Positions 464-27,436 are shown, numbered from the stretch's first letter. The stretch is 32,000 nucleotides of DNA from Candidatus Saccharimonadota bacterium (GCA_020160975.1 JAIUPJ010000001.1:840001-872000); one strand, 5' to 3'. Translations and numbers: made by a program. Notes: generated by a model from the sequence alone, not told the origin.

Positions 464-539
464 GCGGGTATAGCTCAGTTGTTAGAGCGCGTCCTTGCCA
501 AGGACGAGGCCAGGGGTTAGAGTCCCCTTACCCGCACCA
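464..539 (+). tRNA. tRNA-Gly (anticodon GCC), CCA encoded
   Basis: The cloverleaf folds by eye. Acceptor GCGGGTA/TACCCGC, D stem GCTC/GAGC, anticodon stem CGTCC/GGACG with loop TTGCCAA, T stem AGGGG/CCCCT, A73, CCA; 76 nt. Confidence 0.93.
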
Positions 540-2076
540 AAATCGGACTTTCGAGGAAATTGTCGCCCGTTTGGGCGATTTTTTCTTTGGCCAAAGCGAA
601 GCGAGGCCAGATGTTTCCAGAGGGAGAAAAAGAAATTGCTGGCGCGCGCAGGCGCGCTTTTTTGTTTTCTAAAACGAGGTTAGAGCCAAAGATTTCGAGG
701 CAAAGCGACTTTTTGGCAAGTAAGTCGGTGCTTTTTGTTATCTCACAGATAGAAACGGCAGTTTCTATCCACTTTTTCAGCGGTTCGAGCCAAAGATTTT
801 GACCAAGCGTTAGCTTGGATAGTGTTTCTTCAAAACTCTTCTTTTGGCTCATAATCTCCGTCTTTTTGTCGGTGTATATTTCTCGATCAATGTCTTGGTC
901 GAGATAACTATCGAGTAAGCGTTGGAGCTTTGCGGTTAGTTGCGCGATGTTTGTCTGTAAATCTGACGTTTTCGATTGGTTTCGGCTTTGTTCATTGGCT
1001 TGGTCGGTTTCCATAAGCTCGCGCAACTTGTTCGCCCATGCCTTCGGCATGGCGTACTCTCGCAGTAGTTCGGTCAGTTGTGCGTCTAGCAACTCCTCGC
1101 GGATGTGTGGTTCAGGACAACGCGGAGTGTTCTTGCACTTTTTCGTGCAGTGGTAGTAGGTGTAGTGGTGAACATTACCATTTTTCTGCCGTTTAGTTTG
1201 GCTCTCGCCAGTAACCATCATGTTGCACGACCCGCAGCGGAGTAATCCGCAGAGTGGTTTTGGCTCGTTGGTTTTACTGACGCGCTTATGTCGACGTTTT
1301 TCAAACACCGCTTGCACCGTGTCAAAGAGTTTCTTTGACACAATTGGAGTGTGTTTACCCTCAAATACCTCGCCAGCGTAGCGAAAATGCCCGTAATAAA
1401 ACGGATTCGTGAGCATTTTGGCTACCTGGTCTTTTTTGAGTGGTTTGTTGCCTTTGGTTTTTATACCTTTACTGGCGAAAAAGTCGGCGATATCTTGTAG
1501 TCGCTGGTCGCCTCGCGCGTACAACTCAAACGCTTCAACGACAAGCGGAGCTTGTTGCTTGTCCACGATGACCGTCTTGGTGCGAACATCATTTATGTAG
1601 CCAAGCGGGGCACGACCAGGCATTTCGCCTCGCCGGACTTTTTGGCGCAAGCCCCGTTTGGTGTTTTCGGACAAATTGTCTACATAATATTTGCTCTGCC
1701 CAAACGCGATAGACAGCATGAACTTACCTTGCGATGTGTTCTCAAACCAAAAAGTCGGGAACTTCAGATTTGCGAGATGGGTTTGGTCGAGCAAATAGAC
1801 GATTTGTCCGCCGTCTATACTGTTTCGTGCCAGTCGGTCTGGATGCCACGCGATGATGCCATTGGCTTCGCCACGTTCAATTCGCTTTAGTAACTCGGCA
1901 AAGATAGGGCGACCAGGAGTTTTGGCGGATTTCTTCTCAATAAGTTCATCGACAATTTGCAAGTTTTCGTTTCGCGCATAAGCGCGAAGCTCGACTAACT
2001 GCGCCTCAATAGACAGGACTTGTTTGTCCTCTACGTCTGTACTTTTGCGCGTGTATAAGATATATTTTTCGTTCAT
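517..2076 (-). CDS. Large serine recombinase (integrase)
   Basis: 520 aa from ATG 2076, preceded by GGAGGTGAAA; the longer ORF to 2160 has no RBS. It has a resolvase-type catalytic N-terminus (YILYTRKSTDVEDKQ, WHPDRLARN), a Cys-rich zinc ribbon (CGLLRCGSC...YYHCTKKC) and a coiled-coil tail. The 3' end runs through IR1 and 23 nt into the antisense of tRNA-Gly. Confidence 0.9.
   Translation of the reverse strand: MNEKYILYTRKSTDVEDKQVLSIEAQLVELRAYARNENLQIVDELIEKKSAKTPGRPIFAELLKRIERGEANGIIAWHPDRLARNSIDGGQIVYLLDQTHLANLKFPTFWFENTSQGKFMLSIAFGQSKYYVDNLSENTKRGLRQKVRRGEMPGRAPLGYINDVRTKTVIVDKQQAPLVVEAFELYARGDQRLQDIADFFASKGIKTKGNKPLKKDQVAKMLTNPFYYGHFRYAGEVFEGKHTPIVSKKLFDTVQAVFEKRRHKRVSKTNEPKPLCGLLRCGSCNMMVTGESQTKRQKNGNVHHYTYYHCTKKCKNTPRCPEPHIREELLDAQLTELLREYAMPKAWANKLRELMETDQANEQSRNQSKTSDLQTNIAQLTAKLQRLLDSYLDQDIDREIYTDKKTEIMSQKKSFEETLSKLTLGQNLWLEPLKKWIETAVSICEITKSTDLLAKKSLCLEIFGSNLVLENKKARLRAPAISFSPSGNIWPRFALAKEKIAQTGDNFLESPILVRVRGL
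535..664. repeat. IR1 left copy (arm Y, starts with the CACCAA core)
   Basis: Reverse complement of 2219-2348, 129/130 identical (mismatch at 651 vs 2232), compared base by base. Confidence 0.95.
563..585 (+). terminator. Rho-independent terminator-like hairpin 3' of tRNA-Gly
   Basis: TCGCCC-GTTT-GGGCGA is followed by TTTTTT. It lies inside IR1 and inside the antisense tail of the recombinase ORF. A second GC hairpin plus T-run sits at about 643-667. Confidence 0.5.
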
Positions 2077-2218
2077 TTTCACCTCCAACTTAAATAGCCG
2101 CCTCGTTGCACACAATCCGGTATAACCAAATTGTACGAGACGGCTATCTAAGCCATACAAAAAGTCATACCGATTTGATTGTGTGCATTTCTATTTTACC
2201 AAAAACCGCCCATGGCGG

Positions 2219-2348
2219 CAAAAAAGCGCGCTTGCGCGCGCCAGCAATTTCTTTTTCTCCCTCTGGAAACATCTGGCCTCGCTTCGCTTTGGCCAAAGAA
2301 AAAATCGCCCAAACGGGCGACAATTTCCTCGAAAGTCCGATTTTGGTG
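2219..2348. repeat. IR1 right copy (arm Y inverted)
   Basis: Reverse complement of 535-664. It overlaps IR2-left by the 6-bp core TTGGTG (2343-2348). Confidence 0.95.
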
Positions 2349-2493
2349 GAGTTTTACGACTTTGCTCGAACCAATTTTGAGAATTGAAGCTCAGCCCCAA
2401 CGCCCGCGCGCCCCACCAGAAAAACCCTTTAACTGATTTTTCATTTCTCCCGCCGAGATTTCTTTTTAGTTGAAAAGGGTGTTTTCTGGTGGT
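2343..2493. repeat. IR2 left copy (arm X inverted)
   Basis: Exact reverse complement of 4606-4756 (151/151), checked segment by segment. Confidence 0.95.
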
Positions 2494-2499
2494 AGTATG

Positions 2500-4470
2500 T
2501 CAGGCTGCGACGCTTTTTTTACCTGTTAGCGCAAGATGAGCGAGATTGTCTGCCGTTCGCTGCAAGAGAGCTTGCTTCTCTGCGTACTCTCGTGGATCAA
2601 CCAAATACACTGCACCTTTGTAACCATCAGAGACAATTCGAAGCATTGGTTCATTGGCTCCACTTCGTCTTAGTTCGCGCAGAACATCACCGATCTTCAT
2701 CTCAACCCCAACATCGGGGAACAAGCAAATCAAGCCTTTCTCACGGCAAAGCATTTGTGCGTGTCCGCTGTAACCGTCGTTATTTACGATAATGACAGCT
2801 CCTTCACGCGGTAGCGCGTCTTCTCCCTGATGATTACCCATTACTCCTGCAATCGTAAACTTGTTTTCACTCCAAAAAATTACAACTCCTGCATCATCAC
2901 CATTGTGGTGATACTCGTCTAGCAGCTTGAGCGTGACATCGCCAACCCCAGTTGCTCGACACCAGTCGATCGGCTCTATATGTGAAGGAAACTCAACCTG
3001 TCTCCCACTACTTTCTAAAGATTTTTTGGGTAATGGTCGAACTTGCAAGATATTGTTGCCGTAGAACTCGACCTGAACGGGTTTGCCAAAAAACTGCTCT
3101 GCTAGTAAAGCGGCATGTACTGCGCTGTGGGTATTGCGCGTCGAATGACCGCCGATGCCATCAACAGTATGATCGGGTATGCTATGTAGTATTTTTGCGG
3201 ACTCAACACTTGTGAACAGATGTTCTGTGACTTTCGTTTTATCAAATAATAACCCGCCATGCTGGGTTTCAACAACCATCAAGTTTGGATGAGAGGCTTG
3301 GCTATCAACAGTACCGATAGGCGTTTTGTCTTCCCAGTGATCGCTAAGCGAATCGCAATATTGCTGGATTACTAATCCCATTTGCTCACCGTCTATACCA
3401 TGCTGCTTCCTATATTGAACTGCACGAGGACTATTGGTAGAGGCAAACACCTTTTCTATAGCCTGTCGAAAAGCTACCGGGTCACGCGGGTCTGCCGCTA
3501 CCGAATCATACACTCCCGCTCCTGTCATATCCTCTCCGTCTTCGGAACGTACTGCGCTGCTTCGTATCGCGACTACTCGCGGTATTTCTGCGATAGGATA
3601 CCCATCCTCATCGAACTTGCTCTCATTTGTAACGAGTTTTAGTGCTGCCGCATTTAGTTCAGCTAATTGCTCCTCAAACATGGCAGTATTATGTTGCCAT
3701 AGTTCGTACAGGCTAGTGTCTACAGGTATGAAAGGTGGAATATCTATCTCCTGTTGGTAATATTTTTCACCCGCAGTATTTCTTAACAACTCAAGATGTT
3801 CGGCAAACACCATTAAGTTAGCGGCTTTAGCTCCGTACGATTGACGTAGGCCCTCAAGTCGATCCATATCACCCCGTGGAGCTTCTAGTGCTCTTTGGGT
3901 AATTTGATGACGTGCTACAACCGCACGATACCCACTTTCGATAAACTTGGTTAGTGCCTCTGGAGCTTCCGTGTCATCTGAGCCAAGACGAATAACCCTT
4001 TCTGCTTTGTAGGGGATGCTGACCTGCTCATCCCGATAGTCAATCGGCGCATAAACTGTTCTCCCCTCAGGATATAACGGACTACGCACAAACCGTAATC
4101 TCATAGAAGCTGGCCACCTATCAAAGAACGAGCGAGCCGTTTCTAGGGCACTACCTGGTGGACTAGTATCAAAGTTTTCAGCTGTATTCTCAACATCGAT
4201 GTTAAAGGCCGTACGTCTTGCGATATCTGTGGCTCGTTCTAAGCGTGAACCCTTGGATGCGTATCTTAAAGACCGAAGTGCATCATAAAGTGTCTTTTCT
4301 TCTGGCGTTCTTTCTGGCCATTTATCGTCTAGCTCTTGGTGAAGTTCATCGGGAAAGTGCCCAGCTGCATGAAAAAGAAATCTACGAAGAGCTTGCTGGT
4401 TTCCTTCAGCAACTCCAGGCCAACGCGCAGATGCTTCATCAACTGAAGCAATGGGTTTTAACTCCGACAT
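2500..4470 (-). CDS. PEP-utilising-enzyme-like protein: novel N-terminal region, PPDK_N-type ATP-grasp and C-terminal phosphohistidine swivel domain, no TIM-barrel domain
   Basis: 656 aa. YGAKAANLMVF, VVAIRSSAVRSEDGEDMTGAGVYDS and AIEKVFASTNSPRAVQYR match the PEP/pyruvate-binding ATP-grasp domain. AVIIVNNDGYSGHAQMLCREKGLICLF matches the mobile His domain. The first ~200 aa have no motif I recognise. Confidence 0.75.
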   Translation of the reverse strand: MSELKPIASVDEASARWPGVAEGNQQALRRFLFHAAGHFPDELHQELDDKWPERTPEEKTLYDALRSLRYASKGSRLERATDIARRTAFNIDVENTAENFDTSPPGSALETARSFFDRWPASMRLRFVRSPLYPEGRTVYAPIDYRDEQVSIPYKAERVIRLGSDDTEAPEALTKFIESGYRAVVARHQITQRALEAPRGDMDRLEGLRQSYGAKAANLMVFAEHLELLRNTAGEKYYQQEIDIPPFIPVDTSLYELWQHNTAMFEEQLAELNAAALKLVTNESKFDEDGYPIAEIPRVVAIRSSAVRSEDGEDMTGAGVYDSVAADPRDPVAFRQAIEKVFASTNSPRAVQYRKQHGIDGEQMGLVIQQYCDSLSDHWEDKTPIGTVDSQASHPNLMVVETQHGGLLFDKTKVTEHLFTSVESAKILHSIPDHTVDGIGGHSTRNTHSAVHAALLAEQFFGKPVQVEFYGNNILQVRPLPKKSLESSGRQVEFPSHIEPIDWCRATGVGDVTLKLLDEYHHNGDDAGVVIFWSENKFTIAGVMGNHQGEDALPREGAVIIVNNDGYSGHAQMLCREKGLICLFPDVGVEMKIGDVLRELRRSGANEPMLRIVSDGYKGAVYLVDPREYAEKQALLQRTADNLAHLALTGKKSVAA

Positions 4471-4605
4471 AATTAACTAAACATAATACAATAAAAGCTC
4501 ATCGTTCGCAATGATTTGATAAATTCGTCGCGCTGGAGCGCATAGCGCGGCGGCTTTGCCGCCTGTGCGAAGCCCCAGCGCCTCTACTGCTTATGCAGTA
4601 GTCGA

Positions 4606-4756
4606 ACCACCAGAAAACACCCTTTTCAACTAAAAAGAAATCTCGGCGGGAGAAATGAAAAATCAGTTAAAGGGTTTTTCTGGTGGGGCGCGCGGGCGTT
4701 GGGGCTGAGCTTCAATTCTCAAAATTGGTTCGAGCAAAGTCGTAAAACTCCACCAA
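4606..4756. repeat. IR2 right copy (arm X, ends in CTCCACCAA)
   Basis: Exact reverse complement of 2343-2493. Homologous, at an estimated 75-80 percent by eye, to 27256-27434 in direct orientation. Confidence 0.95.
4701..4755 (+). pseudogene. tRNA-Ala-like remnant forming the end of arm X
   Basis: GGGGCTGAGCT..GGTTCGAGC..AACTCCACCA resembles the 5' end, T-loop and 3' end of bacterial tRNA-Ala (GGGGCTATAGCT..GGTTCGATCC..AGCTCCACCA, recalled from memory). It is only 55 nt and has no anticodon arm. Confidence 0.4.
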
Positions 4757-4780
4757 GATAATTTTGAATAATTACCCCTG

Positions 4781-4808
4781 TAAAACGTCGAGTATAATCG
4801 GCGTTTTT
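4781..4808 (+). terminator. Rho-independent terminator-like hairpin just outside element 1
   Basis: AAAACGTCGA / TCGGCGTTTT forms a 10-bp stem (one G-T pair) with a 6-nt loop, followed by a T-run. Confidence 0.5.
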
Positions 4809-5105
4809 TAGTTTGACACAAAAAAGACTCTAATTTTATTTAAATTGCTATATATCAGTTAGAAGTTCAAACTCGGTGAAGCTATTGGTTAGCAGCTCAC
4901 TTATGAGAGACCAGCGAGAATATGAAGTAGCAGAAATATTGCCTTAACTAATCTTCAATTTTGTATAGACACAACTCCGACGCCTTCTCTCTGCTACTTT
5001 CCGTTGCATGTCATGTAAATAAAATTTGCTAGCGATGTTAGGATAGATACTATAAGGTGTGTTAGGGCAGAAGGATCAAGACATCAACCACACGAAAGGG
5101 TGACT

Positions 5106-5669
5106 ATGACATTTCCACAAAAACTCAAAAAAATTCGTAGCGAGCTTGGTTTTTCGCAAGAGCAACTTGCGGAAAAATTAAGAGTTTCACGCCAAGCAGT
5201 AACAAAATGGGAATCGGGCGATGGCATGCCCGACACTCTTAACATGAAAGAACTCTCAAAACTAAGCGGTCACTCACTCGATTATCTACTGGGCAATAAC
5301 GCAGCGCACCAGCCAAAGTTAGGGTTTTTCGAATCGGTGAGTTACGCGTTTAGGCACTTTTCCGACTTTGAAGGGACGACGCGTCGGAGAGTATTTGGAT
5401 GGTATGCTGTGTTTTATGTGCTTGTACTGGCGATTTGTAGTGTATTTGACTTTATCAAGTTCAGCGAAGGCATCAGCCTGTCGCATGTTCTTAGTTCTGT
5501 CTTTGTCATCGCAACTCTTGTCCCATCGCTCTCAATTGGTGTGCGACGTCTTAGAGATGCGGGAGAGAACTGGCAACAGATGCTGTGGATACTGGTGCCG
5601 TTTTTCGGCTTCTTCTACCAATGCTACTTGTGGCTGCAACCTAGCATAGGAGAAAAGCGTCAGCACTAA
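5106..5669 (+). CDS. XRE-family HTH protein fused to a DUF805-like membrane domain
   Basis: ATG 5106 follows AAAGGG; the ORF track starts at GTG 5100. The HTH is LKKIRSELGFSQEQLAEKLRVSRQAVTKWESG. The C-terminal half has TM segments and the RRLRDAGENWQQMLWILVP motif typical of DUF805. Confidence 0.8.
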   Translation: MTFPQKLKKIRSELGFSQEQLAEKLRVSRQAVTKWESGDGMPDTLNMKELSKLSGHSLDYLLGNNAAHQPKLGFFESVSYAFRHFSDFEGTTRRRVFGWYAVFYVLVLAICSVFDFIKFSEGISLSHVLSSVFVIATLVPSLSIGVRRLRDAGENWQQMLWILVPFFGFFYQCYLWLQPSIGEKRQH

Positions 5670-5917
5670 ACTTCATAAACTAAATTCTGCCCGTCTAGTT
5701 AACGAAAATACTCCACCAACCATGTCGAGGCTCGCTAAGGCCTCCATGGCTTGGCGGGTTTCGCTTTTGATGATAAGTTCAGTGGTTTAATAAATCACTG
5801 GATAATATTAAATACTCTGCAATATACATTAGCTTAAAGCAGTCTATCTTCTCTGAATCAAAAGTTAGAAATATGTCTACTATGCGGCACCAAGAAATTA
5901 TCACATCATCACCCCTG

Positions 5918-5944
5918 TAAAACGTCGATTGAATCGACGTTTTA
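5918..5944. terminator. Perfect 13-bp-arm palindrome (bidirectional terminator or protein-binding site)
   Basis: TAAAACGTCGATT-G-AATCGACGTTTTA. It is homologous to the hairpin at 4781-4808. Confidence 0.4.
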
Positions 5945-6076
5945 CTTATTAGCCCAAAATATACTCTAATTTATTTTGCCTGATGTGAACCTAACTATGG
6001 GTCGACGCAACCGCTAGTTTCTTGTTAAATAGAGCTTTTAAGGATACTATCGCTAGTGTAAATCGAAAGGAACACT

Positions 6077-6490
6077 ATGAATATAGGCCAGAGAATATAT
6101 AAAATACGACAGCAGAAAAATATCACACAGGAACAACTAGCGAAAGATTTAGCTATCTCGCGCCAGGCAGTATCCAAATGGGAAAGCGGCAAGGCTATCC
6201 CTGATATCGAGAACCTCATGTATATAAGTAGCCTGTATGATGTGTCGCTCGACGAGCTTATTAAGGGAGATAATAAGGTTGGTCAAAAGATTATTGCTGA
6301 TGCAAGTGCAAAGAAATGGCATAAGCTTAGCATTTTATTTTTTGCTACACTTCTTGTTTATATTATGTGGTTTGGTTCAGCGCATGGCATATGGCAACTC
6401 GGTCTGGGAATCGCCACTCTTAGCATGATTATTATCGACACTCGAATACTCCTACGAAATCGCGTTTCGAAGCCTCTCAAAAGACAATAG
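6077..6490 (+). CDS. XRE-family HTH protein with C-terminal transmembrane segments
   Basis: RBS AAAGGAAC lies upstream. The HTH is IYKIRQQKNITQEQLAKDLAISRQAVSKWESG. Two hydrophobic segments follow (LSILFFATLLVYIMWF, LGLGIATLSMIIID). It is a paralog of the 5106-5669 N-terminus. Confidence 0.8.
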   Translation: MNIGQRIYKIRQQKNITQEQLAKDLAISRQAVSKWESGKAIPDIENLMYISSLYDVSLDELIKGDNKVGQKIIADASAKKWHKLSILFFATLLVYIMWFGSAHGIWQLGLGIATLSMIIIDTRILLRNRVSKPLKRQ

Positions 6491-6721
6491 GCCAGAGACA
6501 ATCAAGTCTTAAGATTAGCTACGAAAAAAGCGTGTCGGATAAATTAAATTGCGATACCAGCTGATTTAGCTTATAAGTCTCGCAGTTCTCATGATTGAGG
6601 GTTAGAAATACGTCGGTTATCCGGCACCAAATCAGGACGAAATTGCAAATTCGGGCGCGAAAGTGCCTATCTTGTTTAAGGTGTCCTATGAGCTGAAGAT
6701 ACGATCCATCTGTCTTGAAGC

Positions 6722-7738
6722 TTACTCTTCACGCCTAGGTGCTATTGTTCTCTGAATATATTGAGATGAAGAAAAAATATTCCCTGCCATCGCCAGCCCT
6801 TTGACTAGTTTATCTGTGCCATACAAATTCCCATAGCTATCCCTCAGACTTACAGTCTGATCAATCCCACCTTCGCGGCAAAATTGTATGTGGCCATCCG
6901 CAGCAATGACGATGTTGCAAAGCCCATCCTGGCACGGATATTTTGGGCAGTCGCCACATAATTCTTTAGAATAATGTGCTGCAACCGAAGTATCTCTTAG
7001 TTCTATCTTCGTACCCTCAGGTGTGGTGAAGACTTTTTTCGCGTGGCCGACTCCGCCAACTGCATATTTAATGGAGGGCGGTCCATACTCACTTTCTAAG
7101 TCAAGAGCGATACTATCAAGCCTTACATAATTATCATCCGCAAAGTTACGTGATCCCGATAACGCATTATCGTAGCTACTTAGGTCAAACAATTTAATAT
7201 CGAGGCCATTCTGAACGCAAAATTCAATTATCGTGCTAACTTCGTCCTTATTGTACTCTCCGACAACGGTCTGAAGTCGTACTGGTACCTTGTCTTTTAT
7301 TTTTAGTATACCTTCAATTGTGTTTTCGAAGATGCTTTCGTTGCGGTGTGCGATACGCCGAAAGACCTCTGAGCGCAGCGTATCGAGGCTAATTTTTAAT
7401 TCATCAAAACCTGTCTCGACTATTCCGTCAAAATACCGTAAGATATTAGCCCCATTCGTGTTAAGTTTTGTATATCCAGGACCTTTTGGACGTCTATCAT
7501 TAACAAATCGCGCCAATTCAAACGTTGTTTGTGCGCTATTGTCTGTCAGAAGAGGTTCACCACCCGTAAAGCTAAAGTCTTGGAAGCCAACATCAATTGC
7601 TGCACTGAGCAGTGTCTTGAAATCATCAAGATTTAGCCTCGTTGATTGCATCTCAACACTATCGCCAGCTATCGGGCAATAATCACAACTTAAATTGCAC
7701 TGCTCAGTAACAGCCACACGCACAGAAGGCTTATCCAT
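6722..7738 (-). CDS. Radical SAM enzyme, MoaA-like
   Basis: VTEQCNLSCDYCP carries the Cx3Cx2C motif; FTGGEPLL and KLNTNG are also present. The C-terminal CGDCPKYPCQDGLCNIVIAADGHIQFC resembles the MoaA C-terminal Cys cluster region. Confidence 0.75.
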   Translation of the reverse strand: MDKPSVRVAVTEQCNLSCDYCPIAGDSVEMQSTRLNLDDFKTLLSAAIDVGFQDFSFTGGEPLLTDNSAQTTFELARFVNDRRPKGPGYTKLNTNGANILRYFDGIVETGFDELKISLDTLRSEVFRRIAHRNESIFENTIEGILKIKDKVPVRLQTVVGEYNKDEVSTIIEFCVQNGLDIKLFDLSSYDNALSGSRNFADDNYVRLDSIALDLESEYGPPSIKYAVGGVGHAKKVFTTPEGTKIELRDTSVAAHYSKELCGDCPKYPCQDGLCNIVIAADGHIQFCREGGIDQTVSLRDSYGNLYGTDKLVKGLAMAGNIFSSSQYIQRTIAPRREE

Positions 7739-20681: not shown

Positions 20682-21721
20682 GGGTAATTATAGGTTGGGT
20701 ATCGGTAACTAAGTTTTAAGAACGCTTGTTAGTAAGGCTTTTGTACATCAGGCGCTTGCCGTTGATGTTATCAAACCAAGCCTCAAAACGCTCGCCGTCA
20801 GTCATGCCGCGTGTGTTCCAACGGAACGTGTACTCGTCGCAGTAGAGCTGCAAATGCTTTGCGCTTACGTGGTGGTAAATGCCGTCAATACCGCGCTTTA
20901 GGTGCGACCAAAAACTTTCTGCTGTGTTCGTACTAGCCATGCCGTTTACAAACTCTTTTGCGCCGTGATTAACGCTTGCGTGCTTGAAACCGATTTTAGG
21001 TAGGGTGCGATACGGCATGTGTTCGTCTGTGTAGATCGTAGCGTCAATGTCGATGTTCTTACGAGCTAGGGTCATAAGCGTGTTGCTGCCTGTGTCTTTA
21101 GTTGCGACTGCACGGAGCTTGCCGCCACGTTCAACCATACCGACAACTGGCGTTTTGCTATTCTTGCTGCCGTGTCCTTGAGCGCCTTTACCAGTTAGTT
21201 GCTTTAGTCGTTTGTGATAGTGCTTGTTGCTGTCCTTGCCGCCTATATACGCCTCGTCCATTTCAACCTCGCCAGTTAGCTTTTCAAAGCTGCCAGTTTC
21301 AAATACGTGGCGTATGCGCTGGAGCATAAACCATGCAGTTGCTTGACGTACCTTTATGAACTTAGAGAGCTGGATTGAAGATACGCCCTTTTTGATACTT
21401 GTACATAGATAGATTGCTAGTAGCCATTTACGCAGAGGTATTTTGCTGTCTTCAAAGATACTGCCGACACGGACGGTGAATTGCTGCCGACATGAGGCAC
21501 ATTTGAATAGCTTGCCAGCGTTTTTACCGCTCGTGTACTTATACGCCTTGCCGATAACGCCACATTGAGGGCAAGTTATCTCGTCTGGCCAACGACGCTC
21601 TTGTATGAAATCCCGACAAGACTGCTCGTCAGGGAATCTGTCTAGTAGTTCGATGAGGTTCATATCTTCCATACTTCCATTGTACACCTCTGTTGTGGGT
21701 GTGTCAAGCGTATAATTGCCT
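20682..21721. mobile_element. IS1595-family insertion sequence (ISXO2-like), approximate ends
   Basis: Imperfect terminal inverted repeats: GGGTAATTATAGGTTGGG (left) vs the reverse complement AGGCAATTATACGCTTGA (right). AAAAT flanks both ends (20677-20681 and 22-26 after 21700, i.e. 21722-21726). A single transposase gene lies inside. Confidence 0.5.
20716..21672 (-). CDS. IS1595-family transposase
   Basis: Start MEDMNLIELLDRFPDEQSCRDF. It has an N-terminal zinc ribbon (CPQCG...CASCRQQFT) and an ISXO2-like DDE region (EVEMDEAYIGGK...YTDEH...NTAESFWSHLKR). Confidence 0.88.
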   Translation of the reverse strand: MEDMNLIELLDRFPDEQSCRDFIQERRWPDEITCPQCGVIGKAYKYTSGKNAGKLFKCASCRQQFTVRVGSIFEDSKIPLRKWLLAIYLCTSIKKGVSSIQLSKFIKVRQATAWFMLQRIRHVFETGSFEKLTGEVEMDEAYIGGKDSNKHYHKRLKQLTGKGAQGHGSKNSKTPVVGMVERGGKLRAVATKDTGSNTLMTLARKNIDIDATIYTDEHMPYRTLPKIGFKHASVNHGAKEFVNGMASTNTAESFWSHLKRGIDGIYHHVSAKHLQLYCDEYTFRWNTRGMTDGERFEAWFDNINGKRLMYKSLTNKRS

Positions 21722-21968
21722 AAAATTATTACACACCTTATATAATGCGGCGGCCATTCGAGCGGGCCGTCCCCGACCCGACCCGCCGGGCCAATCACAT
21801 TCTTGCTCAAAATCGGTACGACTTAGTTGTATAAATCCACCATGCGATCATTCTTAGACGCACCGGCATCTTTTTTTGATTGGCTTGCACGTTGATGAAA
21901 GTGCTTATTTGTGGGGTGTAAACATAGTTTCTGGGTCGAGATAAACCCCAGAAGGAAATAGAACCTGT

Positions 21969-22725
21969 TTGCACTCGAGTCTATCCTGTAGTGACAGATT
22001 GAGAAATATGAGCGAAGAAGAGCAAAGAGGCGTTGCGCTAGCGGGGTTCTTTGCGGAACTATCCATAACTCCGACAACCTCAGCTATAGTTTTTGATGAC
22101 CCAGTTACATCATTGGACCACCTCAATGTGGAATGGATCCTAAGCGTGTTGCTCTCGAGGCGCTAACCAGGCAGGTAATTGTTTTTACGCATAATGCACT
22201 ATTTGCAAGTGAGCTTGAAAGGGCTATTGATGAGCTTAGCGGAAAATATACAGTTAGATCAATTGAAAAATCTGCAAGCCCTGGTGTCGTGCGCGAAAGC
22301 CTTCCCTTTGACACTATGAAAACTGGTCAACGAATTGATTTTCTTGAAAAGCGCACACCTCCAGTTAAGCTAAGTTTGAATATAATGAAGATGATTACAA
22401 GTCCGAAACAGAAAGTTTTTACAAGGATTGAAGGAGAACCTGGGAAAGAGCTATAGAGGAAGTTCTATTGAACGGGATCGCAATTCGCTATCGCAGAGCT
22501 GTAAAACCAGGCAATGTTAATGACATATTTATCAATGATACCGACAAACAGCTAATAGCCGATAATATGCATACCTGCTCAAAGTATATGCACGATCCTG
22601 CGGATGAAACGGGCGGTACTGAAACGCCTAAGCCAGATAATATGAAAGATGATTTACAGATTATAAAAGATTGGGTTACTGATATTAAGCAGCGAGTTAA
22701 GGCGGCAAAAACTGCAAAGTCTTAG
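21969..22725 (+). pseudogene. 3' remnant of an AAA_13-type (PrrC/RloA-like ABC-fold) ATPase gene, frameshifted and 5'-truncated
   Basis: Three consecutive ORFs lie in different frames. MSEEEQRGVALAGFFAEL (signature-like), IVFDDPVTSLDH (Walker B/D-loop) and RQVIVFTHNALF are present. No Walker A part remains, and the IS sits immediately upstream. Confidence 0.6.
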
Positions 22726-22750
22726 GGCTTATTTTGCTATGATATAAGAT

Positions 22751-23314
22751 ATGAAAACAGCAATTACTCTTCACGGCACATTTGGTTCGCCACACGGGAA
22801 CTGGTTTCAGTGGCTAAAGAATGAGCTTGAAGAAAAAGGTTTCGCTGTGTGGTTGCCACAATTGCCCCACGCCGAACAACCCAGTCTTAGAAAATGGCAA
22901 CTATTTGTAAAAGAAAAATGTCCATTTCCTATCAACGAACAGACACTTATTGTCGGACATTCTAGCGGCGCAATACTAGCGCTAGTATTAGCAGAGAATA
23001 ATATGGAAAAGATTGGAGCAATAGTTGATGTGTCGGTCTTCCACGATAACTCATTGCAGTGGCAACCAAATGACAAACTCTTTGATGTTCAATTTAACTG
23101 GACCGCTATCCGGGAGGGTGTGAAAGAGCTGCTATTTATTCATTCGGACAATGACCCTTATGTGCCGCTTAATCAAGCACAGTTCGTATCAACAAATACA
23201 GGTGCTGAGATGATAGTTGTTCCCGGCGAAGGTCATTTCAACTTAGAACGAAGCGATGAGTATAAGCAATTCCATAAACTACTAGAGATATTAGAGGATA
23301 GAAAGCTGGTTTAA
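22751..23314 (+). CDS. RBBP9/YdeN-family alpha/beta serine hydrolase
   Basis: 187 aa with LHGTFGSPHGNWF, the nucleophile elbow GHSSG, and SDNDPYVP...GHF. Confidence 0.75.
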   Translation: MKTAITLHGTFGSPHGNWFQWLKNELEEKGFAVWLPQLPHAEQPSLRKWQLFVKEKCPFPINEQTLIVGHSSGAILALVLAENNMEKIGAIVDVSVFHDNSLQWQPNDKLFDVQFNWTAIREGVKELLFIHSDNDPYVPLNQAQFVSTNTGAEMIVVPGEGHFNLERSDEYKQFHKLLEILEDRKLV

Positions 23315-23315
23315 A

Positions 23316-23642
23316 ATGAGTACCTACAAGATTGTTGTAACTGTTCCCGAAAATGAAGCCGATAAACTTCGCGAGGCTATTGGTAATGTCGGAGGCGGTA
23401 AAGTCGGCAATTACTCTCATTGCAGCTTTTCAGTAAAAGGCACTGGACGATTTTTGCCCGTTGATGGTGCTAATCCTGCTATTGGGCAGGTTGGTCAGCT
23501 TGAAGAAGTCGCAGAAGAGCAGATTGAAATTACCTGTGATAGCGAAAGTGTTAAAGCAGTTTTAGTTGCAATTCGTGAAGCACATTCGTACGAAGAGCCT
23601 GCTATAGATGTGTACGAATTAGCGGAATTATCTGATGTCTGA
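23316..23642 (+). CDS. PII-like small protein (COG3323 / NIF3-insert-like domain)
   Basis: KIVVTVPENEADKLREAIGNVGGGKVGNYSHCSF...GRFLPVDGANPAIGQVG...AHSYEEPAIDVYEL matches this family as I remember it. Confidence 0.6.
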   Translation: MSTYKIVVTVPENEADKLREAIGNVGGGKVGNYSHCSFSVKGTGRFLPVDGANPAIGQVGQLEEVAEEQIEITCDSESVKAVLVAIREAHSYEEPAIDVYELAELSDV

Positions 23643-24591
23643 ACTTCAAACACCAGCGGACCGACTAAATTACACAGGTGACCTTACGCCAGTCATTGAG
23701 CGTGTCTGTGAAACTTATGGCGTTGGTCAGTTGAGCGCAAGTAGTATCGTTGAAGTCGGTTATGAGGATTGTAATGTCGTCATAGAAACCGACCAAGCAA
23801 AGTTTGTCGCCAAGATGTTTGCTAAGACACGAACACCAGTAGACATTACTCGCTATGCCACCACAATGGAGAAGGTCGTACAGGCGGGGGTACATCACCC
23901 AGAACTATTAACAACTGATACTGGCGAAACGACATATAGCGATAGTGGCGTTACGCTCGTTTTAATGCGATTTGTTGAAGGTAAGAGTTTCTTGGAGCTA
24001 GACCGCTCCCCGTCAGACGAAGAGCGTAAAGCCGTACTGGAACAGGCAGCTACGGTAAACAGTATTGATTATGAACCACCCTATCTATTTGATAGCTGGG
24101 CTATTCCAAACATTCACGCGATGCTTGAAAAGGTAGAGCAGTATATTGCGCCAGAAGACCTACCATTAGTTGAGCAAGCGATTGCAGGCTATGATGCTAT
24201 CCCTACAGACGACCTGCCACACTGTTTTGTACACGGCGACTTCACCAAAGCTAATGTCATTAAAGGCGAAGATGGCAAAATATATATTCTAGACTTTTCG
24301 GTTGCTAATCGTTATCCACGGATACAAGAGCTGGCAGTAATTGTTGCCAACCTACTGCACGATGACGGCGAAGAAACGCTAGAGCAGAAATGCAAGCGAG
24401 TAGCAGATGAATACAGTGAATTTAATCCATTGAATGACCAGGAGCGCAAGCATCTACCTGCCTACGCACTGGCTGGCATAGCTATGGAATTTATGGGCGC
24501 ACATCAAGAGAAGTATATAAACGGCAACGACACAGAGGAGACCGACTATTGGCTCAGCCTGGGGCGTGAGGGCTTGCGCAAGGCTCAGTAG
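23635..24591 (+). CDS. APH-family phosphotransferase (aminoglycoside/homoserine-kinase-II-like)
   Basis: Catalytic loop CFVHGDFTKANVI and metal-binding YILDFS are present. The start overlaps the upstream stop (ATGTCTGA). Confidence 0.75.
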   Translation: MSELQTPADRLNYTGDLTPVIERVCETYGVGQLSASSIVEVGYEDCNVVIETDQAKFVAKMFAKTRTPVDITRYATTMEKVVQAGVHHPELLTTDTGETTYSDSGVTLVLMRFVEGKSFLELDRSPSDEERKAVLEQAATVNSIDYEPPYLFDSWAIPNIHAMLEKVEQYIAPEDLPLVEQAIAGYDAIPTDDLPHCFVHGDFTKANVIKGEDGKIYILDFSVANRYPRIQELAVIVANLLHDDGEETLEQKCKRVADEYSEFNPLNDQERKHLPAYALAGIAMEFMGAHQEKYINGNDTEETDYWLSLGREGLRKAQ

Positions 24592-26250
24592 ATAACAAGC
24601 TCCCTGCTTTTAAGTGAAGCTGGGATGCGCGGTGCGCTTGATAGACTACCGTCAACCAACGCTCCAAAAAGTTTAAGTAAATTCTGTAGCTCCGCACCAA
24701 TTCGGAACTGAAACGGAAATTGTCGCCCTCTGGGGCGATTTTTTCGCTTGCGGCGCGTAGCGCCTGCCAGCGGTTTTTCAGGGGGGAGGTTAGAAATTGG
24801 TCGTCATTTATGACGACTTCTTTTTGTCGCATTTTGAGGTTCGACCCGAAGATTTCGAGTAATAGCGACTTTTTGGCTCGTAAATCATCACTCTTGGCGA
24901 CTTTACAGATAGAAACGGCAGTTTCTATCCATGTTTTCATCGGTTCGACCCAGGTCGAAACGCCCAGCGTTGCCTGCTCGATTTGTTCATGCAAAAGTTT
25001 CTTTTTGCCCAATATCTCCGCTCGTTTGTCTTGGTATAGTTCACGCTCTACGTCGCCGTCTAAGTAGCCGTCGAGTAGACGCGCCAGCTTGTCGGACAAC
25101 TGCGCGATAGCTTCTTTATCGTTTCCAGTAATACACTCAAAGTCGGCTTTTTCACTCATCTCGTCGTTACGTATCAGCTCGCGCAGTTTGTCCGCCCATG
25201 CCGTAGGCATGGCATACTTCTGTAATAATGCAGATAGTTGTTTGTCCAGCTCCTCAGCTCTGATGTGCGGCTCTCGACAGACAACCGTCTTACTCTTGCG
25301 AGTGCAGCGGTAATACACATAAGTATGTATGTTGCCGTTCTTTTGCCGCTTTACATGCTTTTCTGCGGTATACATCATGCCGCATGAACAATACACCAAG
25401 CCGCATAGCGGCATTGGGTCATTTGTTTTTGGGTGCGGCTTACCACGCCGCTCTAAAACAACTTGCACTTGGTCAAATAAGCGCTTCGAGATAATGCCTT
25501 TATGCTTGCCCTCATGGACTTCGCCAAGATAGCAAAAATGCCCATAATAAAAGGGATTAGCCAGCATGCGTTTGATACGATTTTTATGATATGGCTTTTT
25601 ACCTGTCGTCTTTTTGCCGTTTACTTTGCCGCTGCGCGTTTGTATGCCTTTGGCATGTAGGAAATCAGCGATCTCATCGAGTCGTTGATCGCCTTTGGCA
25701 TATAACTCAAAAACTTCGCGCACAATTGGGGCAGTTTTCTTGTCTACTTTGGCTGTTTTGGTGCGCAGATCGTTATAATAACCGACTGGCGCAACGCCTG
25801 GCATTTCGCCACGCCGCACTTTCTGCCGTAGTCCACGCTTAGTGTTTACCGACAAATTATCGACATACTGTTTAGATGAATTAAACTCATTTGCCAACAT
25901 ATACTTGCCTTGTGGTGTATTTTCAAACCAAAAATGTGGGAACTTCAAATCAAGCAATACATGCTAATCGAGCATGTAAATAATCTGTCCACTATCTATA
26001 CTATTGCGCGAGAGTCTGTCGGGTAGCCATGCCAGTATTCCGTTTGCCTCACCAGTCGCAATATCAGCCAGCATCTTGTTGAACTTTTTGCGCCCTGGCT
26101 TTTTCGCCGTTTGTTTTTCTACAATTATGCCCGCGATACGCAAGCCCGTACGCCCGGAAAACTCCTTTAGCTCAATTATCTGCGCCGCCACAGATAATAT
26201 TTGCTTGTCCTCTACATCGGTGGCTCGTATATCCTCGGTGATGCTATACT
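24554..26250 (-). pseudogene. Decayed large serine recombinase (paralog of 517-2076)
   Basis: It is colinear with recombinase 1 along its length. There is an in-frame TAG where recombinase 1 has Gln (YMLD*HVLLDLKFP vs YLLDQTHLANLKFP, about 25961-25963). The catalytic YTRKST is replaced by ITEDIRAT, and there is no start codon. Confidence 0.85.
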
Positions 26251-26256
26251 CGAACT

Positions 26257-27174
26257 ATGGCAAAACATCTTTCAATTCTTCTTATCGGTAGTGGCGTCAT
26301 CGGCTCCGTGTATGCTGGTCAGTTTACACTAGAAGGTCATGGCGTTTCGGTTCTGGCGTTTGGAGAGCGTGAACGTAAGCTCGCAAAAGATGGGATTCGA
26401 CTCAAAAACGTACAAACTGGTAAAACAGAGGTTGCTAAGGTACAAGTGGCGGGCACGTCATCAGGCCAGCAGTTCGATCTTGTTATCGTCGCGCTGCGCG
26501 CTAATCAACTGGCGAGTGCTTTCCCGGCATTACGGAAGTTAAAAGGCTCGCCGCATATCGTATTTTTTGGTAACAATCCTGACGGGCATAAGATAATTCC
26601 TAGCGACCTACCCGGTACTGTCCAACTCGCTTTTCCGGGCATCGGCGGCAGTATCGTTGATGATGTTGTTGAGTATATTCCGGTCGATCAGCAGCCAACC
26701 TCGCTCGAAGTATCCGACTCGCCGACAAGCCAAGTAATTCATGACGTCCTAAGCGCGCGAAGGTTTACACTACAAGACATCGCTGATATGGACGGCTGGC
26801 TAGCGCATCACACAGTATTTATCAGTTGTATATCGGTTGCTATTTTGCGCAAGAACGGCCTGCCGGCCGATCTTGCGAATGACCGCGAGGCGATGCGCAC
26901 GCTATGTCGTGCGATCGAGGAAGGCTTCGCTATGTTAAAGGCGCAACACCTTGGCGGTGCACCAAAGAACCTCGTCACACTCCATAGTCGCTGGCTCCGT
27001 CCGATTGCTGTAATGTACTGGAGCAAGCTACTACGCTCACCAAAAGGCGAACTTTATTTTGGTGCTCACGCTCGGCACGCTCCGGATGAAGTCTACCAGC
27101 TGGCTACGTGGACGCTAGCGCGCTGCCCAAAGAATTACGACGCACCACGCCTTAAACATCTATTAGAGCAGTGA
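26257..27174 (+). CDS. Ketopantoate-reductase (ApbA/PanE)-family NAD(P)-binding oxidoreductase
   Basis: It has an N-terminal Rossmann motif LLIGSGVIGSVYAG and the DLVIVALRANQL pattern. The substrate is not inferable. Confidence 0.6.
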   Translation: MAKHLSILLIGSGVIGSVYAGQFTLEGHGVSVLAFGERERKLAKDGIRLKNVQTGKTEVAKVQVAGTSSGQQFDLVIVALRANQLASAFPALRKLKGSPHIVFFGNNPDGHKIIPSDLPGTVQLAFPGIGGSIVDDVVEYIPVDQQPTSLEVSDSPTSQVIHDVLSARRFTLQDIADMDGWLAHHTVFISCISVAILRKNGLPADLANDREAMRTLCRAIEEGFAMLKAQHLGGAPKNLVTLHSRWLRPIAVMYWSKLLRSPKGELYFGAHARHAPDEVYQLATWTLARCPKNYDAPRLKHLLEQ

Positions 27175-27194
27175 TCAGACGTTTAGAGAGGGCG

Positions 27195-27366
27195 CAAAGC
27201 ACGTCGGCTTTAGCCGACTAGAGACACGCAGTCTCTGCCACAAGTGGCAAGGCGGACCACCAGAAACCCCCTTTCAACTAAAAAAGAAATTCCGCGGGGG
27301 AAATCTCAAAATAATGCAAAGGGTTTTTCTGGCGGGGCGAGCGGGCGTGAAACGCTCGCAGGTGTC
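27195..27366 (+). ncRNA. Candidate structured RNA / structured DNA module of arm X (copy 2; copy 1 at about 4530-4700)
   Basis: The module is a series of hairpins shared with copy 1, with compensatory changes: GTCGGC/GCCGAC vs GGCGGC/GCCGCC, and TTCC/GGAA vs TCTC/GAGA. It is intergenic, with a terminator downstream at 27437-27466. It belongs to no RNA family I recognise. Confidence 0.3.
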
Positions 27367-27433
27367 GGGGCTGAGCTTGCGCTTCAGCCCTCACACTCAA
27401 ATTCGGTTCGAACTTGGTCATAAAACTCCACCA
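27367..27433 (+). pseudogene. tRNA-Ala-like remnant at the end of arm X2
   Basis: GGGGCTGAGCTT...GGTTCGAAC...AAACTCCACCA. It is 67 nt and does not fold into a cloverleaf. Confidence 0.35.
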
Positions 27434-27436
27434 AAG

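Follow-up and report, generated by a model that had tools for sequence, protein, structure and literature searches.

A probable serial stack of integrative units at a tRNA-Gly 3' end, and its serine-integrase family with a spare inverted attachment site

The window, a 32,000-nucleotide stretch of a Patescibacteria (Saccharibacteria-type) genome, in all probability carries at 541-27434 at least six integrative units, stacked serially at the 3' end of a tRNA-Gly(GCC) gene. The two units with a gene for a large serine recombinase (LSR), E1 next to the tRNA and E2 farthest from it, are part of what is apparently an undescribed, large family of tRNA-3'-end serine-integrase elements with a spare inverted attachment site. 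The features are as follows, where P and P' denote the element-side left and right attachment arms.

464-539, plus strand: tRNA-Gly(GCC), the anchor (ARAGORN; Rfam, 71.7 bits)
517-2076, minus strand: int of E1, a 519-aa large serine recombinase (Pfam Resolvase, Recombinase and Zn_ribbon_recom)
535-540, plus strand: junction 1, attL of E1 (tRNA / CACCAA / Y), start of inverted repeat I2; P' rank 2 of 1021
541-664, plus strand: Y arm, the right-hand attachment arm of E1
2219-2493, minus strand: internal inverted attP (rcY 2219-2342, core 2343-2348, rcX 2349-2493), where I1 and I2 abut
2494-4605, no strand assigned: invertible cargo segment
4606-4756, plus strand: X arm (left-hand, P type) with the core of junction 3, attR of E1; 151/151 identical to 2343-2493; P score 33.0, rank 2
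4757-5893, plus strand: unit UA, with a Z-type left end with terminator and a right end ...GCGGCACCAA at junction 5 (repeats D8 and D11)
5894-6630, plus strand: unit UB, a paralogue of UA, with a Z' left end and a right end ...CCGGCACCAA at junction 6
6631-21842, plus strand: E3, a remnant of 15 kb in which the recombinase gene is lacking (blastn-short, nhmmer and Pfam)
21843-24700, plus strand: unit U5, with hydrolase, CutA-like and APH-type kinase genes and a right end AAAAAGTTTAAGTAAATTCTGTAGCTCCGCACCAA at junction 7
24701-27434, plus strand: E2, a decayed element (Y2 24701-24769, X2 27250-27428, core 27429-27434)
27435-27467, plus strand: chromosomal right flank B', a hairpin with T-run

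Junctions and units of the stack

Serial insertion at the tRNA-Gly 3' end had been proposed in an earlier note, and related genomes agree with it. In two close strains (L106 and L107), homology to the window starts exactly at 27429, at 98% identity; the longer contig, L106, holds a different, restriction-modification unit at this position, preceded by a family P arm. More distant relatives have tRNA-Gly(GCC) at a distance of 115-450 nt from HD-murF-leuS, and the genes 3' of the tRNA are variable. The comparison with an empty locus was answered in part: relatives indeed keep the tRNA beside HD-murF-leuS, but neither an empty tRNA/flank site nor an E1-free tRNA/Z junction for this organism was present in either of the two metagenome scans. 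The hairpin and T-run of B' are probably the original tRNA terminator, and AGTAA...hairpin flanks resembling it follow attR in L030 and L064.

Using the attachment arms that related elements have in other genomes, we derived profiles and position weight matrices, and scored all 1021 CCA sites of the window with the arm matrices. The earlier list comprised nine sites, here numbered 1 to 8 from the tRNA outward plus a candidate at 15909. P-type ranks 1-4 are taken by sites 2, 3 and 8 and by a new site at 21799-21842, while sites 1, 2 and 7 occupy P'-type ranks 1-3 and site 6 rank 5; site 2 has the highest score of both kinds. Sites 1, 2, 3, 6, 7 and 8 are thereby upheld, their arms matching a profile built from related elements elsewhere. 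Congruent with this, 535-664 and 2219-2348 form an inverted repeat of 130 nt with 1 mismatch, 2343-2493 and 4606-4756 a second one that is fully identical, and Y2 (24692-24745) and X2 (27250-27435) match Y and X at 74-84% identity. The right flank of site 6 (6625-6659) is 94% identical to core plus Y of another family locus, L022 (E 2e-10, blastn-short). Site 5 is intermediate, as its flanks recur within the window (27/35 between its right flank and that of site 3, 23/35 between its left flank and that of site 6, against a background of 8.8 +/- 2.7 of 35), yet the family profile lends it no support. Site 4 (P rank 354) and the 15909 candidate (P rank 159) score like chance, and the 11-mer that they share is uninformative, shared 11-mers being frequent in the window (777 pairs). 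Two of the nine are thus chance sites, and one real junction had been overlooked, at 21838-21842, with core CACCAT and a degenerate P arm (nhmmer E 3.8e-6).

The core of junction 1 consists of the terminal bases of tRNA-Gly (C72, A73, CCA), the T-loop of which reads GTTAGAG. An expectation of about 15 CACCAA hexamers was accurate (15.0 +/- 4.2), but the actual count is 34, an excess, with at least 34 in 0 of 100 shuffles. Searches of the window with Rfam (E<=1) and ARAGORN returned no tRNA-like sequence besides the real tRNA-Gly; the tRNA-like remnants postulated at the junctions, including the left arms of sites 5 and 6, are accordingly not detectable as tRNA.

The units between E1 and the flank are diverse. 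UA encodes an HTH-DUF805 protein (5106-5669) and no recombinase, and its Z-type flank directly follows tRNA-Gly in L112 and L113; UB carries an HTH-membrane gene (6077-6490). E3 begins with a 29-nt Y remnant of the L022 type (6631-6659), ends with a degenerate P arm (21799-21837) and core CACCA(T) (21838-21842), and has genes for radical SAM, T4SS/conjugation, relaxase, MFS, TetR and HxlR proteins and an IS1595 transposase. The right-end sequence of U5 also adjoins family elements in L023 and L051, and in L051 a second LSR (33% identity) is located between the U5-type right end and tRNA-Gly. Since the ends of UA, UB and U5 fall off the family profile, other recombinases or decay are needed for them; no tyrosine recombinase was found among the island ORFs. 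E2 has simple attL/attR ends, no internal attP and an intact ApbA/PanE-like gene (26257-27174). Its dead int (minus strand, to ~26260) contains an internal stop, and RKST has become RAT (motif now IRATDVEDKQ). The intact serine recombinase is hence nearest to the tRNA and the dead one farthest, as had been noted, and this decay suggests that E1 would be the newest and E2 the oldest insertion.

Element E1 and its integrase family

E1 is ordered, as is usual in the family, tRNA / core / Y - int - inverted(X / core / Y) - cargo - X / core. Its recombinase is an LSR, with resolvase catalytic, recombinase and zinc-ribbon domains (PF00239, PF07508 and PF13408; Pfam), and the identical protein is present on 4 contigs. 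In the AF2 model, helices 345-463 are inserted between zinc-ribbon strands (coiled coil), and the best Foldseek matches are the SPbeta, LI, PhiC31 and Bxb1 integrases; PDB relatives are 4kis (phmmer) and 9dxh. Within the catalytic motif YTRKSTDVEDKQ, R10, K11 and S12 are invariant in alignments of 18 and 53 homologues. The int stop codon lies inside the tRNA-Gly gene, antisense, and the core together with the tRNA acceptor/T arm codes for the C-terminal LVRVRGL. The opposite strand of the Y arm, which also contains two terminators ending the tRNA transcript, codes for the final ~41 residues. The reading frame consequently spans the attachment site, yielding 519 aa when integrated (tRNA-coded tail) and 526 aa in the attP configuration (P-arm-coded tail); because int crosses attP, integration would replace its final ~15 codons by tRNA-encoded ones. 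The gene content of E1 is completed by one cargo gene (2500-4470, minus strand), for a 656-aa protein with a PPDK_N / PEP-utilising-type domain (Pfam), and no RDF candidate was seen; a 68-aa ORF within the internal repeat shows no conservation.

A single scan of genome contigs from bacteria and archaea recovered 587 confirmed family loci, nearly all in Patescibacteria, and among 2.9 million viral contigs the family was found only 3 times. Of 81 int copies, 57 extend into the 3' end of a convergently oriented tRNA gene, and the tRNAs involved represent 27 anticodons and 13 amino acids. The stretch common to attL, internal attP and attR in the window and 27 related loci is only 3-11 nt around N72-N73-C74 (no stretch was resolved at 2 of the 27), and each attP core agrees with the discriminator of the tRNA concerned. 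Crossover may lie at N72-N73 or at N73-C74, and L067 would place it elsewhere. In a column alignment of ~50 loci, the T-loop-like GGTTCGAGC of the P arm is displaced outward from the crossover by 4 nt relative to the GGTTCGA in the tRNA T-loop. This register shift resembles the attP/attB shift known for LSRs, which for the LI integrase is 5 bp (PMC3783163); the zinc-ribbon domain may read the GGTTCGAGC/T-loop motif. The P' arm, on the other side, has low information content and no mirrored motif, and P' and B' are not mirrors of P and B, in contrast to the quasi-symmetric sites of canonical LSRs. Far-side (B') flanks are unrelated among loci and mostly terminators, whereas the tRNA-side arm and core are conserved. 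At the level of the family, this agrees with the relaxed target rules suggested previously, and stacking is possible because the far-side chromosomal flank is not conserved.

The internal attP and segment inversion

Site 2 had been read as X|Y on the minus strand, correctly so, as both inverted repeats abut there; moreover, it is a full inverted attP, which creates two invertible segments in E1. An inverted repeat flanks int at 69 int copies in related loci (100% identical in 41), and a second pair around the cargo, in the same layout as in E1, is present in 25 of the 35 loci having >3 kb of upstream sequence.

Natural sequences show the two segments in more than one arrangement. L013 and L014 carry the cargo segment inverted, and L010/L012, L015, L016 and L017 carry it in the orientation of the window; int is flipped, with the tRNA upstream, at 4 genome loci versus 57 in the usual orientation. 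The only gene end altered by inversion is int's own tail. A 526-aa Int (P0127) on L102 has an X/core/Y junction at the int stop side, which would fit either an excised circle or an int segment in flipped orientation; L102, L133 and L134 fit both alike because the contigs end inside repeats. The P-arm-coded Int tail was detected in 10 of 120 listed cluster representatives, all on contigs of <=3.6 kb. The inversions could be driven by RecA between the 130-151 bp perfect repeats instead of by Int.

It is possible, if somewhat doubtful, that the spare inverted attP is a tolerated duplication without function of its own, kept identical by gene conversion and inverted by RecA; this would bear on the importance of the internal site alone. 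The promoter-like sites of both genes are inside their own segments (that of the cargo gene at 4511-4483), and inversion should therefore leave expression unswitched. E2 does without an internal site, orientation is uniform in two other family members (10 and 7 contigs), and repeat identity drops to 82-93% at some loci, which fits passive decay. However, the layout is kept across different target tRNAs and diverged arms, the two attP copies co-vary within each element, the repeat boundaries join precisely at the core, and the skew in int orientation is unlike free neutral flipping.

That the recombinase is mainly a DNA invertase, with the repeats as a phase-variation switch (inverton/shufflon) beside the tRNA, is very unlikely, despite the observed segment inversion and the inverted repeats around both genes. 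The protein is a full-length LSR and not a Hin/Gin-type invertase, the repeat arms are the same sequences as at the outer junctions with tRNA and flank, and the promoters lie within the segments; furthermore, cargo is extremely varied across the family, and E2, with its simple ends, is missing in a close strain exactly at the core. Even less credible is a single large conjugative element of 27 kb, rearranged inside and with incidental CACCAA sites. A T4SS and relaxase module in the middle, the general CACCAA enrichment and a GC content without sharp difference between island and flanks would suit it, but seven junctions have arms matching independent elements in other genomes, two recombinase genes each have their own end pair, and one close strain departs from the window by an entire unit at a core. 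Artefacts of metagenome assembly are a negligible concern, as many related contigs do break at repeats but independent NCBI, ENA, JGI and Logan assemblies give the same junctions at 100% identity, and the same architecture recurs in dozens of unrelated assemblies from different assemblers.

Known systems and a proposed mechanism

The ssrA genomic islands of Dehalococcoides, with serine recombinase DsiB (McMurdie et al. 2011, PMC3146451), are alike in having the LSR gene on the reverse strand beside attL, insertion in the 3' part of a tRNA-like gene, and tandem islands that pile up downstream, some without an integration module (PMC3146451). Their target is however the tmRNA within the T-loop, with a 20-bp direct repeat, whereas here many tRNAs are used at the discriminator/CCA with a 3-11 nt core. 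They also have a small recombinase, DsiA, no counterpart of which is found among the ORFs of the window island (Pfam), and an internal inverted attP is not reported for them ('inverted' occurs 0 times in the text of PMC3146451). A CcrB-type module was rejected (129.6 bits against the CcrB model, cutoff 900; no DsiA, a tRNA target and a 6 bp core). Prochlorococcus tycheposons mostly rely on a tyrosine recombinase specific to the lineage, and partial copies of the tRNA are left behind (10.1101/2020.12.28.424599). They too are tRNA-anchored islands of a small streamlined host genome, where newcomers displace older cargo elements and degenerate remnants persist (10.1101/2020.12.28.424599). A tycheposon was rejected on account of the LSR, with no tyrosine recombinase ORF and no partial tRNA (Rfam, ARAGORN), and a Hin/Gin-type inverton on account of the 519-aa LSR and of promoter-like sites inside their own segments.

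The LI/A118, Bxb1, PhiC31 and SPbeta integrases share with Int the domain set, the predicted fold, a short core and one DNA motif in attP and attB in shifted register. Unlike for canonical phage serine integrases, the sites here are strongly one-armed, the target is a gene class (tRNAs) rather than a single locus, int crosses attP and a second, inverted attP resides inside the element; the two-gene element moreover has no visible RDF candidate, and the family is nearly absent from viral contigs. Two unique segments bounded by inverted repeats, with up to four isomers, are also known from the yeast 2-micron plasmid and herpes simplex (class E), which are replicons recombined by the tyrosine enzyme Flp and by host/viral recombination, respectively. 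The likeness is in layout only, the internal joint being an inverted copy of the circularisation junction; the recombinase is unrelated, and no replication function is evident in E1. In myxophage Mx8 (intP/intX), attP is inside the integrase gene and integration alters the enzyme C-terminus. E1 shares this location of attP, but the Mx8 enzyme is a tyrosine integrase, the tail exchanged in it is long, and a spare inverted attP is lacking.

In the serial stack, E1 and E2 carry recombinases of one LSR family, E3 having kept the family arms and lost the gene. We propose that crossover would take place in the short core, composed of the last acceptor base pair, the discriminator and the first C of CCA. 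Recognition by the enzyme seems to rest on a single strong half-site in each partner. On the chromosome this would be the tRNA T arm and acceptor stem, and on the element the P arm, ...AAAATAGGTTCGAGC-N15-core, with the T-loop-like motif 4 nt farther out. Every insertion would regenerate an intact tRNA end, with newcomers pushing older units outward; the end being regenerated and the far-side flank unconserved, the target would remain usable. Stacking does not require an integrase to re-use its own attL: adjacent units visible in the window have different right arms, and the regenerated tRNA end likely stays a target whatever sequence follows. Excision would yield a 4216-bp circle with two inverted attP copies, integration may proceed via either of them, and the segments may be flipped by Int or by homologous recombination.

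More speculatively, and we consider it unlikely, the spare inverted attP may represent a directionality switch for an RDF-less serine integrase and, separately, the universal tRNA T arm and acceptor end one dominant half-site. If true, inversion of the int segment across the spare attP would rebuild full-length int within the integrated element, which could then switch back and forth between locked and mobile states, and the integrase family would be retargetable to any tRNA gene via core and acceptor-reading contacts.

The island at tRNA-Gly and its repeats

The only tRNA that ARAGORN and Rfam detect in the window is tRNA-Gly(GCC) at 464-539, in which A stands in place of C56 (T-loop TTAGAGT). 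Position 56 is C in nearly all tRNAs. The D-loop, AGTTGTTA, has T at the G19 position, and U19:A56 may form a compensating tertiary pair. The same unusual T-loop is found in tRNA-Gly of four related loci from other assemblies (L022, L024, L108 and L112). The island follows the tRNA directly, with E1, the intact element, nearest to it and E2, a decayed element, outermost.

Features of the island, in window positions
517-2076, minus strand: intact large serine recombinase (LSR), int of E1
2500-4470, minus strand: 656-aa protein with PPDK_N domain
5106-5669 and 6077-6490: two small HTH-membrane genes
6722-20608: radical SAM gene, then conjugation block (coupling protein, CHAP, VirB4, PrgI, VirB6, pilins, relaxase); HxlR, MFS and TetR genes within the same range
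20716-21810: IS1595 transposase
22751-24591: hydrolase and APH-type kinase
24554-26260, minus strand: dead LSR of E2, with an internal stop and RKST changed to RAT
26257-27174: ApbA/PanE-like gene
from 27525: HD protein, MurF and further core genes

Repeat searches recovered long copies of the attachment arms on either side of the CACCAA core, the short shared crossover region. Core and Y (the right-hand or P' arm), at 535-664, recur inverted at 2219-2348, the two 130-nt copies differing at a single hairpin-loop position, and 2343-2493, with X (the left-hand or P arm), recurs inverted and identical over 151 nt at 4606-4756; in a 154-nt version of the X repeat the apparent mismatch falls outside the core. 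The X and Y flanks of the earlier note are thus genuine long repeats. A diverged second end pair, Y2 (24692-24769) and X2 (27250-27435), retains 74-84% identity to Y and X. The hexamer itself occurs 34 times on both strands against 15.0 +/- 4.2 in shuffles, a count reached in 0 of 100; the roughly 15 chance copies expected previously agree with the shuffles, and the motif is actually enriched. About 8 of the 34 copies are junctions, and the excess goes beyond junctions.

Several further features were observed. The conjugation-type set (coupling protein, VirB4, VirB6-like, PrgI, two pilins, CHAP hydrolase and Replic_Relax relaxase) has a Y remnant on one side and a degenerate P arm on the other, its own recombinase being absent. 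A 34-nt inverted repeat (7754-7787 and 21696-21729, 91% complementary, 13.9 kb apart) brackets the conjugation block; its right copy holds a promoter-like TTGACA...TACAAT just upstream of the probable true start of the IS1595 transposase (21672), and the left is a solo copy adjoining the coupling-protein gene. In E2, the ApbA/PanE-like cargo gene is intact, its start coinciding with the truncation on the 5' side of the dead int, and no internal attP region is left; E2 may have been fixed by a deletion that retained cargo. Lastly, a conserved long hairpin (CCACCAGAAAACACCCTTT ... AAAGGGTTTTTCTGGTGG) occupies the outer parts of X and X2 (4606-4690 and 27250-27340), beyond the P arm of about 50 nt, and matches no Rfam family.

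Junctions, relatives and stacking of units

To assess the junctions against independent arms, we extracted attachment arms from 80 loci encoding LSR relatives in other genomes, converted these to nhmmer profiles and ungapped weight matrices, and scored every CCA in the window (1021 sites) with the matrices. The four best P-type sites are 2346(-), 4753(+), 27431(+) and 21840(+), and the three best P'-type sites are 537(+), 2346(-) and 24697(+). The junctions proposed at 535, 2343 (minus strand), 4751, 24695 and 27429 therefore carry top-ranked P or P' arms, and X2 and Y2 match arms of L024 (P arm, 91% over 56 nt) and L033 (89% over 72 nt), respectively. The site at 6625 ranks fifth as P' (6627), with 94% identity of 6625-6659 to core and Y of L022 (E 2e-10); its left arm fails the P-arm matrix (rank 513). 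The site at 5888 is borne out by repeats within the window: its right flank agrees with that of 4751 at 27/35 positions and its left flank with that of 6625 at 23/35, against a background of 8.8 +/- 2.7; exact patterns gave no match outside this organism, and its left arm ranks 145 as P.

Six junctions of the earlier note thus have matching arms and a seventh is upheld by flank identity. The sites at 5714 (P rank 354/1021) and 15909 (159/1021) are at chance level, and the 11-mer they share is uninformative, given 777 position pairs with a common 11-mer in this stretch; the junction at 21840(+) is new and had been missed. The tRNA-like remnants suggested for the array are not supported: Rfam at E<=1 and ARAGORN detect only the true tRNA-Gly and no partial tRNA at 5888, 6625 or 24695, and the left arms at 5888 and 6625 are likewise rejected as family P arms by their matrix ranks.

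Two units behind E1, UA (from 4757) and UB (from 5894), have left ends of types Z and Z' and right ends of type W. An exact-pattern search for Z and W in the loci fetched by then returned only contigs of the same organism. A diverged Z-type flank, like those at 4757 and 5894, lies directly 3' of tRNA-Gly in L112 and L113; thus, Z is either a widespread element end or an ancestral tRNA trailer.

Relatives reached through homologues of the HD protein allowed the island to be compared between genomes. All contigs with an identical HD protein have E2 upstream, and hence there is no empty site in that population; two metagenome scans, an exact one for the tRNA 3' end and a protein-based one with the HD protein, returned nothing. 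Homology between the window and a close strain (L106 and L107, 98% nucleotide identity) starts exactly at 27429, the first core base. Upstream of this point the longer contig, L106, has a HIT gene and a restriction-modification pair (XhoI-type endonuclease and N6 methylase) replacing E2 (window 24701-27434; L106:1-3190), preceded by a family P arm (nhmmer E 1e-10), and therefore the outermost unit of the stack differs between close strains. In four more distant relatives (L108, L109, L112 and L113), the distance from HD-murF-leuS, the core-gene block after the island, to a tRNA-Gly(GCC) that shares the GTTAGAG T-loop is 115-450 nt, and accessory genes vary on the tRNA 3' side up to a Zincin_1 gene that is upstream of the tRNA in the window's genome. 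The tRNA strand is opposite relative to HD in these four, which indicates that the tRNA-plus-island block has been inverted between lineages. The variable region is at the tRNA 3' end in every case compared. In L024, murF is also on the 5' side of tRNA-Gly. Insertion is thus supported by the divergence at 27429 and by tRNA-Gly close to HD-murF-leuS; for this organism, neither an empty tRNA-flank site nor a tRNA-Z junction lacking E1 was found.

The breakpoint at 27429 and the matching arms in other genomes support the main reading of the earlier note, in which serine integrases that ask little of the far-side sequence inserted units one after another next to the tRNA. Formation of attL would restore tRNA end and core each time, and the integrase would make no demand on the flank beyond, so that the tRNA end would stay a target after each insertion. 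The successive right arms in the window all differ (Y1, Z, Z', Y3 of L022 type, the flank after 21842, and Y2 of L033 type); no integrase therefore need re-use an attL bearing its own P' arm, by which we infer that stacking is reconciled with canonical LSR rules. The right end of another unit, U5 (AAAAAGTTTAAGTAAATTCTGTAGCTCCGCACCA), recurs beside family elements at two loci, L023 and L051. At the latter, tRNA-Gly and the family element with the U5-type end are separated by a second, distant LSR (33% identity; 12628-13611), so at least two recombinase lineages share the tRNA-Gly hotspot. The most similar systems described are the Dehalococcoides ssrA islands, with an LSR beside attL and tandem islands behind the tmRNA gene (PMC3146451), and tycheposons, in which newcomers push older elements into the island (10.1101/2020.12.28.424599).

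A recombinase family at tRNA gene ends

Protein searches with the LSR gave at least 8000 matches, and a genome scan confirmed 587 loci, 80 of which were fetched. Nearly all of the latter are named Patescibacteria (Saccharibacteria, Parcubacteria-type groups and others); a viral contig collection held only three relatives, and a phage origin of the family was rejected on this count. Cargo is very diverse and includes restriction-modification systems, enzymes, transporters and a reverse transcriptase. One locus, L043, carries two family elements (6643-8187 and 11858-13399) at two different tRNA-Leu genes about 5 kb apart.

Surroundings of 81 int copies
57: convergent tRNA overlapping or abutting the int 3' end (27 anticodons, 13 amino acids)
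9: contig end right after int
4: tRNA upstream of int, same strand
11: sequence available, no tRNA; these include L023 and L051, with the element behind another unit, like E2 in the window

The earlier note barely touched the unusual content of the element: the T-arm-like P arm, the tRNA target range, int crossing attP and an inverted spare attP. Identity among attL, internal attP and attR, compared in the window and at 27 related loci, is confined to 3-11 nt that invariably lie around the final acceptor pair, discriminator and first C of CCA (2 of the 27 gave no resolved shared core). The attP core matches the discriminator of the host tRNA (CACCA, CTCCA, AGCCA, GCTCCA or TACCA). The chromosomal far-side flanks (B') have nothing in common in this set except frequent terminators, in agreement with the relaxed target rules suggested for stacking. 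The P arm is strongly conserved (AAAATAGGTTCGAGC-N15-core), and in a column alignment with tRNA arms its GGTTCGAGC lies 4 nt farther from the core than GGTTCGA of the tRNA. This shift is close to the geometry of the Listeria innocua integrase, for which the zinc-ribbon motif is 5 bp nearer the centre in attB than in attP (PMC3783163). We infer from these alignments that the enzyme probably reads the T arm as its outer motif. By weight matrix the P' arm has little information and lacks a mirrored motif, and the sites are thus one-armed.

The inverted spare attP and the int tail

The minus-strand X|Y site at 2343 proved to be more than a junction, as 2219-2493 is a complete inverted X, core and Y inside E1. 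The element thus reads tRNA, core, Y, int, reverse-complemented Y, core, reverse-complemented X, cargo, X, core and Z. An inverted repeat of about 100-150 nt surrounds int at 69 int copies in related loci, 100% identical in 41. Among 35 loci whose upstream sequence exceeds 3 kb, 25 have a second pair (about 105-360 nt) that abuts the first and bounds 1.2-8 kb of cargo. Overlap between the two pairs is limited to the core. About 30 of 80 contigs stop no more than 600 nt upstream of int, a pattern that assembly breaks at the repeat would produce.

Both segments occur in more than one arrangement among assemblies. In two JGI assemblies (L013 and L014) the cargo segment lies reversed between its two flanks, and four others have it in the window orientation; the flipped state, tRNA, core and Y directly upstream of int, occurs at four genome loci. 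The 90% cluster of the window Int includes a 526-aa form ending in ...SPILVEFYDFARTNFEN versus ...SPILVRVRGL. The contig encoding it, L102 (4180 nt), is window 2397-4756 joined at the core to 541-2360, which places X, core and Y beside the int stop side, as expected of a 4216-bp excised circle or of a flipped int segment. The P-arm-coded tail occurs in 10 of the 120 cluster representatives listed, all on contigs of at most 3.6 kb, and the two of these that were fetched, L133 and L134, have the layout of L102; all three contigs end inside repeats, and circle and flipped int are therefore not separable. Contigs of two other Int family proteins, P0088 and P0105 (10 and 7 contigs), show no orientation polymorphism, and it is rejected as a general family trait.

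The reading frame of int runs through the attachment site. For the attP configuration, a tail of 12-16 aa, (V/E/A)x(L/F)Y(N/D)xARTYFxxNx, with an in-frame stop at a conserved place, is found in 31 of 36 family members, and across these 36 members the other two reading frames behave unlike the int frame. Integration swaps this P-arm-coded tail for residues from the antisense strand of the tRNA, and inversion of the int segment across the internal attP would rebuild the full-length gene without excision.

What the spare attP does can be weighed against these data. That it is a passive by-product is possible, if doubtful: the 57:4 skew in int orientation implies that the two states are not equivalent and speaks against it, and the uniform orientation for P0088 and P0105 and the promoter-like sites inside both segments speak for it. 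A switch, as the reading frame and this skew would suggest, we consider unlikely. Besides the uniform orientation for P0088 and P0105, conservation of the tail may merely reflect constraint on the P-arm DNA, and an AF2 model is uninformative there (residues 481-531, pLDDT about 37-51). Both int and cargo have promoter-like sites within their own segment and three terminators shield int on the cargo side, making an ordinary promoter-flip switch unlikely, and inversion as a promoter switch was rejected. A 68-aa ORF of the internal repeat, considered as a trans-acting tail peptide or recombination directionality factor (RDF), is not conserved, with an in-frame ATG in only 14 of 70 loci and a median upstream open length of 20 codons, no longer than in control frames (23 and 16.5). 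Other putative roles, such as 2-micron-like circle amplification, would share the remaining weight.

Genomic islands at tRNA genes are the textbook case for tyrosine integrases. The literature searched does not describe this family or layout, which is weak evidence of absence given its incomplete coverage. Here, a serine integrase family achieves such targeting in another way, with few shared bases and with an attachment site that itself bears a copy of the T-arm motif. For directionality control without an RDF, the one-armed sites, an int gene running through its own attP and the conserved inverted spare attP are all relevant, and integrases that land on conserved tRNA gene ends are possible engineering tools. 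To our knowledge, few routes of gene exchange are known for the tiny genomes of Patescibacteria; the family is widespread there, and its elements could underlie a large part of the accessory gene flux at tRNA loci of these organisms.
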